Assembly (NCBI RefSeq): GCF_057098645.1
Contig: NZ_CM169472.1
Length of the DNA: 64,000 nucleotides
Direction: 5' to 3' (one strand)
The position numbers are program-made. This document shows, piece by piece, positions 39,001-42,000 of the stretch; position 1 is the first letter of the stretch; the number at the start of each line of letters is the position of its first letter.

Positions 39001-42000
39001 TCTATAGTGCCTCGGACAGCGTTCAATTTGAAGCAGGCAAATTTGCCGCGCCGTCAGGAATGTTCTTTTTGCGTTCGCCTTCTGATTTGCAAACGCATTA
39101 TTACACCGGATTCCAGTCGACGCGTTTGCACGATCCCAAAATGACATCGGCGTATCAGGCGTCATCGTGGGGCGCAAAAATGAGCGTGGATACACGCGAT
39201 TATGCGTTTTCGGCGAGTGTCATACCGAAGTTAGCCACCATCGACAAACGCTATGTGACGTCTGGCAACTGGTCGGCTAATCAGCAGGGAAACAGCGACG
39301 AAGCCTATCTGCTGAGCTTCAGCGATCATCGCTTTGATGAGCACACGCCGACAGTCAATGTGCGGCTCGGACCATCGCCGTCACTCGCGCTGTCTGACAG
39401 TTATCACTACACCCCGCAGCTTACGCTGAATGTCGACGCAGCCTACCACCGCTCCCAGCAATGGCGGCATCTTTCCCACCGTGAGACGGCGCAGGTCGAG
39501 GAATATCAGTTTCCGGATTCGCTCTATGAAACGAAAGATGAAAGCGGCGTGGAGCTGGCGCTGGGTGGGCAGTACACCAGTGATAATTTCAGCGTGTTTG
39601 GCGTTGAGTATTACTTTCAGAGCGAGGGTTATTCGCGCGCTGAACAGCGTCAGCAGCGCGAGTTAATTGACTTCCTCAATACCACAACCGGCTATGCGCC
39701 ACTGGATCAGGCATTTGATTCTTACAAATACCTGATGGCTTCAGAAATCAGCAATACCGCCAATCAGGGGATGCTGCAGGGTAAGCACTATCTGAACGCC
39801 TGGGCCAGTCTGCCGCTGGCGGGAGAGTCGACGCTGCAGCCTTCGCTGGTGGTCAATCTCATTGATGGCAGTGCGTTGCTGGGCCTGCATTATTCCACGC
39901 CGCTCAGCGCTATCAGTAACCAGCTTGAAGCCTATGCCGGTGGCTATAGCGCGCTGGGAAGTCGGTATTCTGAATTTGCGCTTTTTGGCGACACGTTAGG
40001 CCTTTATTTGGGCTTTAAATACTATCTATAAGGATAAAGAGATGATGAATAATGCTTCACAACCGACAGTACTGCTTTTTGCCGGTCAGGGTAATCCGGT
40101 TATTGGTATGGGCAGCGATCTTTGGGATCTCAACGCCAGTACAAAACATATCTGGGATTGTGCCAGCGATATTTCCGGACTGAACCTGCGTCGCCTGTGT
40201 CAGAAAGGGCCGATGAATCGCCTTATTCAAACGACGGTACAACAACTGGCGGTGACCGCAATTAATGTAACGCTCTATACCCTGTGCCGCGAGCGTCTTG
40301 AGAATTTAACGGTTGTGGGCTCCTGCGGACACAGCGTTGGTGAATACAGTGCGCTCTACGCCGCTGGAGCTATTTCTCTTGAGACGCTATTTGGCATGAT
40401 TCACTTCAGAGCCAGCCTGATGCATGACGAAAGCCAGAGAAATAAAGGCGCAATGCTGGCGGTTAAAGGCATCAACCGCGAACAACTGCAGACGATGATT
40501 ACGGAATCAGGCATTGCGCTGGATATTAGCTGTGATAACACGCCGCGCCAGCAGGTTATTGGGGGAACGCAGGCTGCGTTGAATGAATTTGCCACGCTGC
40601 TGATGGCCGCTGGGTACGAACCGGTTAAACTCGGTGTGAGCGGTGCTTGGCACACGCGTTTGATGGAAGACGGCGTTCAGGCAATGCGCGATTATCTTGC
40701 CGGACTGGATATCGCTTCGCCAGAGCATCAGGTTCTGATGAACGTAACAGCAAAAAGCGAGGTCGCTCCGTCAATTATCAAAGAAAATCTCTCATTACAC
40801 TTAACTCATACGGTGAAATGGACTGAATCTCTCGATACATTTCTGAATATGCCAACCCCGGTAGCTTTCCTTGAAATAAGTAATAAGCCCTATTTGGGGA
40901 ATATGTTAAATGATTTTGCTGGCGTGGATCAGCAACGAGTTATGCATTGTCGTAAAGCATTTAGTGATGCGAAGGTATTCAAATGATTCCTGATTATTTA
41001 ACTTTTATTCGCTTTCAGGATAAACGAAATCTGATATACATTTATGCTATTGGACTTATTCTGATAGGCTTTTATTGGAAAAATGCAGGGTTTACTTTTC
41101 CATCAGAGGATATTGGTGTAGTTAGTGGGATTCTGGCCCTGGTGCTGTATAATTTTATTTTTGATCTCAAGGCGTACTGGGCTTATAAATGCGTCACGAA
41201 GAATATCGATTTTTCGTGGTTTAAGAAAAAGCAGAACCACAAAATAGAATTATTTCTTACACAACCTCTGGTGGCAGGATTTCTGTCGTTAATCATGTTG
41301 AGTGCAATGAGTTGGGGGCTATACCAGCTTCTACCCTCGTTATATGCGCTGTTCCTGATTTCGTTACTTGGGCCGTTGGTCATCTTTCTGTTGTTTCGGA
41401 TGATCCGCACCAGTTATGTCAAGCAGGTCGCTATTTCAGTAGCGAAAAAAGTAAAATATAAAAGTCTGACTCGCTATGTGCTGCTTTCGGTGTGTATCTC
41501 AACGGTTGTTAACCTGCTTACTATCAGCCCGTTGCGTAACAGTGATTCTTTTGTGACAGAGGGGCAGTGGTTAACGTTTAAATCGATAATTGCATTGCTC
41601 ATTCTTTGTGGCGTAGTGTTGGCGATTAATCTATTTTTTCTGCGCTTCTCCAAGCGGTACGCTTTTCTGGGCAGGCTTTTTTTGCAGGAAATCGATCTGT
41701 TTTTCTCCAGTGAAAATGCGTTGTCGACCTTTTTTGCCAAGCCGCTTTGGCTTCGGTTATTCATATTGCTGGTTATTGAAGTGATGTGGATTACGCTGGT
41801 GTCGGTATTGGCAACGCTTGTGGAATGGCGGATTTGGTTTGAAGCCTATTTTTTACTCTGCTATGTACCGTGCTTAATTTACTATTTTTTCCATTGTCGG
41901 TTCCTCTGGCATAACGATTTTATGATGGCATGTGACATGTATTTCCGTTGGGGGCATTTTAATAAGTGAGGAAGTTACAGAAAGTGACCAGATAGCGCAT

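Follow-up and report, generated by a model that had tools for sequence, protein, structure and literature searches.

Whether ycdU, an orphan gene of Escherichia coli K-12, is a gene in its own right or the last member of a larger unit is the question raised by the window analysed here, a stretch of 64,000 nucleotides from contig NZ_CM169472.1 (NCBI RefSeq assembly GCF_057098645.1). In the window, ycdU directly follows a FabD-like acyltransferase gene at the end of a long series of same-strand genes for lipid synthesis and export. An original prediction held that ycdU is the terminal gene of this operon, that its K-12 copy is the relic of a deleted island, and that YcdU, a polytopic inner-membrane protein, works with the pathway. 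Our analysis makes it highly probable that ycdU belongs to the operon and that the K-12 gene is a relic. In any specific biochemical role for YcdU, our confidence is low.

ycdU overlaps the FabD-like gene and ends a 17-gene array

Direct reading of the junction (gcgaaggtattcaaATGAttcc around 40983) agrees with the predicted ATGA overlap of the FabD-like stop and the ycdU start (Table 1). The ycdU ATG occupies 40983-40985 and the FabD-like TGA 40984-40986 on the same strand, giving an overlap of 4 nt. The start at 40983 is secure, because the N-terminal sequence MIPDY is invariant in 19 homologues with identities down to 36%. A Shine-Dalgarno-like GAAGG lies inside the FabD-like open reading frame (ORF), 7 nt ahead of the ATG; with a core of just 4-5 nt, this element of the ycdU ribosome-binding site is weak to moderate. 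A stop/start overlap combined with a Shine-Dalgarno-like element inside the upstream ORF is the classic layout for termination-reinitiation, and the FabD-like/ycdU pair shares both features with known ATGA-overlapping coupled pairs. A lone ATGA overlap is ordinary in operons, and two more occur within the same array (34227-34230 and 38643-38646). What exceeds chance is the conservation of the FabD-like/ycdU pair across genera, not the single overlap. In contrast to the coupled pairs, most other genera have the two genes 1-34 nt apart, so the overlap is not essential to the linkage.

The array that ycdU terminates spans about 20 kb and comprises 17 same-strand genes from otpA to ycdU (21640-41969), separated by intergenic distances of -17 to +88 nt. 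A sigma-70 consensus scan of the + strand from 40042 to 40983 returned no promoter, nor did an outward scan upstream of ycdU from the gene stump that precedes it in K-12, the scan being insensitive in both cases. No convincing terminator was found ahead of 42128 within the array region scanned. The first strong hairpin, which is also the top terminator-like match in the region, falls between the end of ycdU and the 3' end of serX, a gap of 192 nt. This hairpin is the serX terminator, and on the + strand it probably ends the operon as well. The shared strand, the 4-nt overlap, the outcome of the promoter scan, the position of the hairpin and the invariant position of the gene in other genera all agree with the prediction that ycdU is the terminal operon gene. 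From this arrangement we infer transcription as a single unit and translational coupling of ycdU to the FabD-like gene.

YcdU occupies the same position in other genera

Linkage was surveyed in both directions. A search starting from YcdU yielded 13 genomic contexts, 12 of them informative, from Klebsiella oxytoca, K. aerogenes, Mixta, Pantoea, Kosakonia and metagenomic relatives, the last down to a profile E of ~1e-15. In all 12 the gene lies directly after the Acyl_transf_1 (FabD-like) gene of the cluster, and the downstream neighbours vary. The remaining context (L057) begins at a contig end and reads ycdU-like gene, ACPS gene, TpsB, TpsA.

For the converse survey, an alignment of hyp317, a conserved protein of the cluster that serves as an independent marker, was scanned against one genome per species, which gave 35 loci. 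Their hosts are Enterobacter, Kosakonia, Mixta, Izhakiella, Buttiauxella, Rahnella, Serratia, Tenebrionibacter, Silvania, Leclercia, Klebsiella, Pantoea, Providencia, Proteus, Entomohabitans, Cedecea, Edaphovirga, Erwinia and one Acinetobacter assembly. Four of these loci end at contig ends before the ycdU position; every one of the 31 that extend that far carries a YcdU-family ORF directly 3' of the FabD-like gene, on the same strand. Across 46 loci of other genera the distance from the FabD-like stop to the ycdU start ranges from -4 to +34 nt, and the ATGA overlap recurs in Rahnella, Serratia sp. Ag1, Tenebrionibacter, Acinetobacter sp. ANC 4558, Entomohabitans and Cedecea. A cluster variant found in Providencia and Proteus is devoid of the LolA-like and barrel genes and keeps the FabD-like-YcdU pair.

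The gene therefore tracks the cluster in all 43 informative loci outside E. coli (31/31 found by the marker and 12/12 found from YcdU). Evidence of this kind, from conserved neighbourhood, appears about as strong for ycdU as it gets, and it strongly supports the predicted participation of YcdU in the pathway.

The Acinetobacter sp. ANC 4558 contig (L036) holds a complete cluster of the Enterobacterales type, including TpsAB and the overlapping ycdU; this copy reflects either horizontal transfer or contamination.

K-12 ycdU is left over from an IS3-associated deletion

In K-12 the gene order is dgcT, the insertion sequence (IS) element IS3, an incomplete acyl carrier protein (ACP) S-malonyltransferase gene, and ycdU. 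The original prediction had placed ycdU alone beside IS3; instead, the 344-bp ymdE (b1028) stands between them. The right end of IS3 lies at position 6000 of the K-12 locus (L001), and position 6001 equals window position 40643. The remaining ymdE fragment starts at the conserved His of the FabD-like protein and is without the GHSVG serine. The ymdE pseudogene annotated by PGAP is longer than 344 bp because it runs into the IS3 end. On its left side, IS3 adjoins the equivalent of position 9761 in the O157 locus (L006), 11 bp past dgcT, and the DNA that it replaces corresponds to O157 positions 9762-41496, or ~31.7 kb. This segment is O-island 47 (OI-47), for which a size of 31,727 bp and the gene range z1528-z1556 are given (PMC8565820). 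OI-47 is thus bounded by the K-12 deletion, and its right edge falls within the FabD-like gene.

The locus has been truncated more than once. IS3 is flanked by GCATTT and GTGCC in K-12 and by GCATTT and GGCGG in 94EC, and reading of the K-12 and 94EC junctions revealed no 3-bp repeat that would mark a target-site duplication. The 94EC class shares the left IS3 junction with K-12, and its right junction lies 185 bp further left. Strain SMN197SH3 has an IS1 junction within the FabD-like gene, in another E. coli variant an IS1 deletion extends from vmpA to within the ABC gene, and BL21 and HS-01 have IS3-adjacent deletions that take out ycdU as well. In a laboratory evolution experiment, a rightward deletion of 26.5 kb, from ymdE and ycdU on, arose at this very IS3 copy of K-12 (PMC8611074).

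Comparison of the ycdT (dgcT)-ycdU interval among E. coli genomes thus uncovered both IS3- and IS1-associated deletion scars, and the replacement of ~31.7 kb, the absence of a target duplication at the junctions read and the several truncation classes bear out the view of K-12 ycdU as a relic of a deleted island. Part of this idea was known before, since ymdE was already annotated as an IS3-truncated pseudogene with a full-length form of 945 bp in other phylogroups (PMC4951805, PMC5635171). The window and the K-12 ymdE-ycdU (b1029) region beside IS3D are the same locus, with YcdU 99% identical; compared with the literature on the K-12 pair, the present analysis adds the full-length partner, the exact deletion and the cross-genus linkage.

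ycdU lies inside the variable segment of the E. coli chromosome

Among 5426 complete E. coli genomes, a query of the FabD-like gene plus ycdU matched 2667 in any part, and a 14.8-kb cluster query matched 2668. The complete cluster is present in 380-389 genomes (~7%), and ~2280 have only a 3' FabD-like stump and ycdU, beside IS3 or IS1. Erosion from the left by IS3- and IS1-associated deletions has therefore affected ~42% of the complete genomes, K-12 among these. In two samples spread across the ranking (40 and 50 records), the partial matches run to the end of ycdU without exception. About half of the sampled matching genomes have the K-12 junction (40643) and about a quarter the 40458 junction; IS1 at 40811 and the IS1 deletion that starts in vmpA are rare.

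In a further 1161 genomes (~21%), the type strain included, the site is empty and dgcT is joined to serX with a spacing of ~100 bp. Homology to these genomes stops ~30-40 bp ahead of the dgcT end and restarts at about window position 42105. As empty-site genomes join dgcT to serX, ycdU lies inside the variable segment and not in the backbone; the variable unit runs from just after dgcT through ycdU to ~60 nt before serX. The definition of OI-47, made against K-12, excludes ycdU, whereas the empty-site comparison includes it.

The window is E. coli DNA, and this region of it matches PapRG-06-5 and strains of O145:H28 at 100% identity and O157:H7 at 98.4-98.9%. The pga/dgcT region and serX-ghrA-csg flank the island, and compared with OI-47 of O157:H7 the window contains the same island at 97-99% identity, with pdeT/vmpA, grvA, the fimbrial locus, otpAB and the lipid cluster. 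OI-47 has been described as an adhesin and fatty-acid biosynthesis island (PMC8565820, PMC5567499), and reviews restrict it to O157:H7, O55:H7 and O145:H28 (PMC10877973). We find the complete cluster also in baboon, blackbird, guinea fowl and human commensal-type isolates with genomes of ~4.8-5.0 Mb.

A classical tRNA-integrated island was considered and rejected. The segment adjoins the 3' end of a tRNA gene, but the annotations of O157 and of a window-type strain show no integrase between dgcT and ycdU, and a search of the window with the 25-nt 3' end of serX, allowing up to 3 mismatches, returned a single occurrence and hence no repeat at a far boundary. The O157 integrase downstream of ycdU belongs to OI-48.

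Several differences from other strains were noted around the array. Between ycdU and serX, K-12 and many other strains have two or three extra tandem units of ~181 bp encoding RtT small RNA (L001 7533-8076 in K-12), of which the window has a single copy (42101-42180). The window itself is without dgcT (ycdT) owing to a ~1.77-kb deletion relative to O157, with its junction at 5184-5187. At 5105-6703 this deletion joins pgaA-dgcT intergenic DNA to pdeT/vmpA, a cyclic di-GMP phosphodiesterase gene, and leaves an EAL-domain ORF whose N-terminus is new and whose promoter may be that of dgcT. Transposase genes of the IS110 family (12144-13340) and IS66 family (15752-17290) are insertions in the fimbrial part relative to O157.

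YcdU is a small family of predicted inner-membrane proteins

In keeping with the original description of YcdU as a polytopic inner-membrane protein, eight helices are predicted. The AlphaFold2 model contains eight long helices, with a predicted local distance difference test score (pLDDT) of 86.7 and a predicted template-modelling score (pTM) of 0.83. Lys and Arg residues in alternate loops number 24 on the cytoplasmic side and 1 on the periplasmic side, which places the N- and C-terminus alike in the cytoplasm. Loops and tails hold 21 invariant residues, 20 of which are cytoplasmic. Among the latter are those of MIPDY..R..Q at the N-terminus, of Y226-x-FLG...D238, and of H304, W309-H310 and D318-M319..R322 at the C-terminus, and the polar and aromatic invariants comprise D4, R10, Q12, R142, D238, H304, H310, D318 and R322.

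The family is tiny, with 69 representatives among 1.84 billion proteins, and all sequence-detectable members with an organism name are from Enterobacterales. Searches of YcdU against Pfam gave only a spurious 25-residue match to Ycf12 (E 0.001), and those against NCBIfam, PADLOC and PDB sequence profiles gave no match. Foldseek comparison with AFDB50 returned only uncharacterised membrane proteins, with TM-scores of ~0.8 in Desulfatitalea, Paraburkholderia, Verminephrobacter and Aquipseudomonas; one of the proteins returned bears the label DUF975, which was not taken as functional evidence. The YcdU sequence contains no H-x4-D, the HX4D motif, and has no Pfam acyltransferase match; with this motif absent, we rejected the identification of YcdU as an acyltransferase of the PlsC/LPLAT type.

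The operon combines a secretion pair, a lipid synthase and an export route

By gene content, the operon unites three functions (Table 1): two-partner secretion, a type II synthase of the fatty-acid/polyketide-like kind, and an envelope export route that consists of the MacB/LolCDE-type ABC transporter, the LolA-like carrier and the outer-membrane barrel. Its first gene, otpA, corresponds to OtpA (ECs1282; bioRxiv 10.1101/2020.04.13.038984), and the OtpA/OtpB two-partner secretion system has been described previously (bioRxiv 10.1101/2020.04.13.038984; PMC5422565). In 22 loci of other genera, acpS is likewise immediately preceded by a same-strand TpsA-TpsB pair, and secretion genes and lipid cluster have the look of a single conserved module. 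Such a link between OtpAB and the lipid cluster differs from the one proposed in the literature, in which OtpA works for the fimbrial locus upstream. Immediately 5' of otpA is a 1.4-kb AT-rich stretch (20250-21640; 33-37% GC) without an ORF of at least 150 aa, a likely regulatory region of the long operon that may undergo silencing.

Four of the cluster proteins belong to no known family. The marker protein hyp317 has the invariant motifs WGE, ERxGC and YGxSG, and hyp218 matched no Pfam or NCBIfam family. The 462-aa protein encoded next to the FabD-like gene has no Pfam match either; its predicted structure is a beta-barrel for which Foldseek returned OprD/Occ and AlgE at E values of about 1e-13, a signal peptide is predicted, and Cys23 and Cys76 are invariant. 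Since this protein is modelled as an OprD/AlgE-like barrel with a signal peptide, the operon is predicted to encode not only the synthase but a complete path through the envelope as well. The FabD-like protein, whose start is at 40042 or, in the RefSeq annotation, at 40045, has the motif GHSVG, the Arg in FRASLM and the His in AWHT; these features and its score are those expected of a member of the FabD family rather than of the FabD equivalog.

Table 1. Positions in the window of the genes of the otpA-ycdU array, signals near ycdU, and equivalents of deletion junctions in other strains
Feature	Position	Strand	Basis or remark
otpA, TpsA exoprotein of two-partner secretion; first array gene	21640-25452	+	TIGR01901 filamentous-haemagglutinin N-terminal domain; annotation
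otpB, TpsB outer-membrane transporter	25541-27160	+	annotated ShlB/FhaC/HecB family; acpS begins 15 nt on
acpS-like holo-ACP synthase	27176-27544	+	TIGR00516 79.6 bits (cut-off 59.8)
FabG-like 3-oxoacyl-ACP reductase (short-chain dehydrogenase/reductase, SDR)	27558-28319	+	NF009466 225 bits (cut-off 222)
FabZ-family dehydratase	28323-28871	+	partial NCBIfam FabZ match; annotation
Dedicated acyl carrier protein	28893-29174	+	annotation; NCBIfam matches under cut-off
GcvT-family aminomethyltransferase-like protein	29210-30370	+	NCBIfam GcvT under cut-offs; homologues match PF01571
Fused double ketosynthase (KS-KS), 852 aa	30444-33002	+	FabF-like matches in two stretches; homologues 2x PF00109 plus PF02801
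Third, divergent ketosynthase-like protein	33007-34230	+	weak ketosynthase matches
hyp317, 317-aa conserved protein, no known family	34227-35180	+	no Pfam/NCBIfam match; independent cluster marker
LolD/MacB-like ATP-binding cassette (ABC) ATPase	35191-35898	+	TIGR02211 228 bits (cut-off 307.75)
hyp218, 218-aa exported or membrane-anchored protein, no known family	35882-36538	+	hydrophobic N-terminus; no Pfam match
MacB/LolCE-type permease, FtsX plus periplasmic domain	36539-37849	+	TIGR02212 92 bits, under cut-off; homologues PF12704 and PF02687
LolA-like periplasmic carrier (TP_0789-like)	37858-38646	+	homologues match PF17131; signal-peptide-like N-terminus
462-aa predicted outer-membrane beta-barrel	38643-40031	+	AlphaFold2 pLDDT 76, ~18 long strands
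FabD-like ACP S-malonyltransferase, full-length form of K-12 ymdE	40042-40986	+	TIGR00128 178 bits (cut-off 260.9)
IS3 right junction equivalent, 94EC class	40458		leaves 529-bp stump
IS3 right junction equivalent, K-12	40643		leaves 344-bp ymdE (40643-40986)
IS1 junction equivalent, strain SMN197SH3	40811		leaves 176-bp stump
Shine-Dalgarno-like GAAGG	40971-40975	+	direct reading; inside FabD-like ORF, ATG 7 nt downstream
ATGA overlap, ycdU start/FabD-like stop	40983-40986	+	direct sequence reading
ycdU, 328-aa inner-membrane protein, terminal gene	40983-41969	+	99% identical to K-12 YcdU; 8 predicted helices
GC-rich hairpin between ycdU and serX	42128-42149		top terminator-like match in region
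serX, tRNA-Ser(GGA), 3' end towards ycdU	42162-42249	-	right edge of variable segment

Relation to known lipid synthesis and export systems

Aryl polyene (APE) clusters combine ACP, ketosynthases, a reductase, a dehydratase and LolA-like proteins with an exporter that places the lipid in the outer membrane. The present cluster shares their logic, namely a dedicated set resembling a type II fatty-acid synthase (FAS), a LolA-like protein and a membrane exporter. Unlike APE clusters, its 17 genes include, by annotation, NCBIfam and Pfam, neither an MMPL/RND exporter nor aryl-starter enzymes, and its own complement comprises an ABC transporter of the MacB type, a GcvT-like protein, the fused double ketosynthase, a barrel resembling OprD/AlgE, the linked pair for two-partner secretion, and YcdU. 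We therefore rejected identification as an aryl polyene cluster on gene content. A relation to cispentacin biosynthesis was also dropped, as the matches to AmcB, AmcE and AmcF are weak, stay under their cut-offs and can be put down to the ketosynthase, ACP and FabZ families in general.

The transport genes resemble those of the LolCDE/MacAB (type VII) ABC transporters: the best scores of the ATPase are those with LolD and MacB models, an FtsX domain and a MacB periplasmic domain are present in the permease, and a LolA-like carrier follows. With scores of 228 against a cut-off of 307.75 for LolD and 92 against 362 for LolCE, the membership extends to the superfamily only and not to the LolCDE equivalogs. 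In contrast to these systems there is a single permease gene, and the partners hyp218, barrel and YcdU are unique to this cluster. As a whole, the system appears to be of a type II FAS-like synthase plus Lol-like export kind.

A possible role for YcdU and the alternatives

We propose that the FabD-like acyltransferase and YcdU would be made from one mRNA and that in E. coli YcdU would most likely be translated by termination-reinitiation at the ATGA overlap. The protein would be the membrane step that links cytosolic synthesis to export: probably acting with the FabD-like enzyme, it would remove the completed acyl chain from the ACP and either insert it into the inner membrane or flip it there, ready for extraction by the ABC transporter. 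No gene of the operon encodes a thioesterase or another enzyme for chain release, and transporters of the MacB/LolCDE type work on substrates that have already reached the outer leaflet of the inner membrane. It is for these reasons, and because the invariant residues of YcdU are cytoplasmic, that we suggest YcdU for the membrane step, although the version in which it transfers or off-loads the acyl chain is tentative. Extended to the whole module, YcdU could represent a new inner-membrane protein family that, with the FabD-like enzyme, off-loads or inserts the finished chain from the dedicated ACP and hands it to the MacB-type extractor, the LolA-like carrier and the OprD/AlgE-like barrel; the product would be a surface lipid working with the co-inherited OtpAB. 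We regard this fuller scheme as possible but doubtful.

The points that weigh against our interpretation concern both the place of ycdU in the operon and the role of its product. The search with the hyp317 marker may have missed divergent clusters without YcdU, and an internal promoter may lie within the FabD-like gene, given that the consensus scan is insensitive. Intactness also counts here: the six E. coli ycdU alleles examined, including those from cluster-less genomes, are all full length, with ratios of non-synonymous to synonymous polymorphism (pN/pS) of 0.04-0.57, calculated over very few substitutions. Together with the ~2280 cluster-less genomes that keep an apparently intact gene, these ratios below 1 are what would be expected if ycdU were an independent backbone gene with its own promoter and function, kept by selection and merely abutting the island. 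The pair ymdE-ycdU is moreover part of a core genome that is specific to mastitis-associated strains of phylogroup A, and for this pair a retained function was suggested (PMC4951805), and Perna-style definitions of OI-47 (z1528-z1556) leave ycdU in the backbone (PMC8565820). We nevertheless consider an independent backbone gene quite improbable. All 43 informative loci outside E. coli have the YcdU family only directly after the FabD-like gene of the cluster, empty-site genomes are without ycdU as well as the island, and the gene has been lost in BL21, HS-01 and a laboratory K-12 clone (PMC8611074). No consensus promoter was found upstream by the scan described above, and K-12 contains very little ycdU RNA (53-64 normalised counts, compared with 37,076 for phoH; table in PMC10294691). 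Stump-bearing genomes differ in ycdU by 0-2 synonymous and 2-4 non-synonymous substitutions, too few to demonstrate selection, so that selection and recent loss are not separable by pN/pS. In our view the stranded ycdU is a relic, with a slight chance that it is still of some use. A different history, in which the island was never ancestral to K-12-like lineages and a truncated ymdE with ycdU arrived beside IS3 by recombination or transposition, could draw on the mobility of IS3 and on the 99% identity among stump-bearing genomes at this locus, which is compatible with spread by recombination. This history is very unlikely, as stump and intact cluster occupy the identical chromosomal position and orientation (dgcT ... 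serX), the left IS3 junction 11 bp past dgcT is the start of the O157 island and the missing DNA is OI-47, and truncations have arisen independently at one locus (IS3 at 40458, IS3 at 40643, IS1 at 40811 and IS1 from vmpA to the ABC gene).

As to the role of the protein, YcdU is without a recognised catalytic motif, so an acyl-transfer function is a guess from the step missing in the operon. Because the Providencia/Proteus variant keeps YcdU without the LolA-like and barrel genes, the protein also seems tied to the synthase and ABC part and not to the whole export route. YcdU might instead be a non-catalytic member of the operon, such as an extra subunit of the ABC exporter, an anchor, a flippase, or an immunity protein to the lipid or to OtpA. 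A polytopic protein with neither a catalytic motif nor a known fold relative would suit such a part; the need of MacB-type transporters for a substrate in the outer leaflet logically requires a flippase, and terminal operon positions are common for immunity and accessory genes. However, the invariant polar and aromatic residues on the cytoplasmic side better suit binding to, or chemistry on, a cytosolic partner such as acyl-ACP, the constant and often overlapping neighbour is the FabD-like acyltransferase and not the ABC genes, and YcdU is present in the variants that lack carrier and barrel. A non-catalytic role is thus conceivable, at rather less than an even chance.

Significance

OI-47 and its fatty-acid biosynthesis genes, OtpAB and the IS3-truncated ymdE were already known. 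In the literature on ycdU we found no link to the upstream biosynthetic cluster or to OI-47, and a search for the chemistry of the cluster returned nothing. We likewise found, in the literature searched, no earlier account of ycdU as the conserved terminal gene of this cluster, of the OI-47 boundary as a K-12 deletion endpoint that excludes ycdU, or of a module of two-partner secretion, synthase, exporter and YcdU conserved across Enterobacterales.

These findings correct the view of OI-47: its right boundary is the endpoint of the K-12 deletion within a gene and not the end of an acquired island, and the unit occurs in strains other than enterohaemorrhagic E. coli too. They also draw attention to an uncharacterised module for lipid synthesis, export and two-partner secretion that is present in several clinically relevant Enterobacterales. 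For K-12, an orphan y-gene gains a testable context as the stranded last gene of a conserved 17-gene module, and its separation from that module would explain why ycdU has neither a phenotype nor an assigned function there. Suitable settings in which to study ycdU are O157, O145:H28, Enterobacter, Klebsiella oxytoca and Proteus mirabilis.

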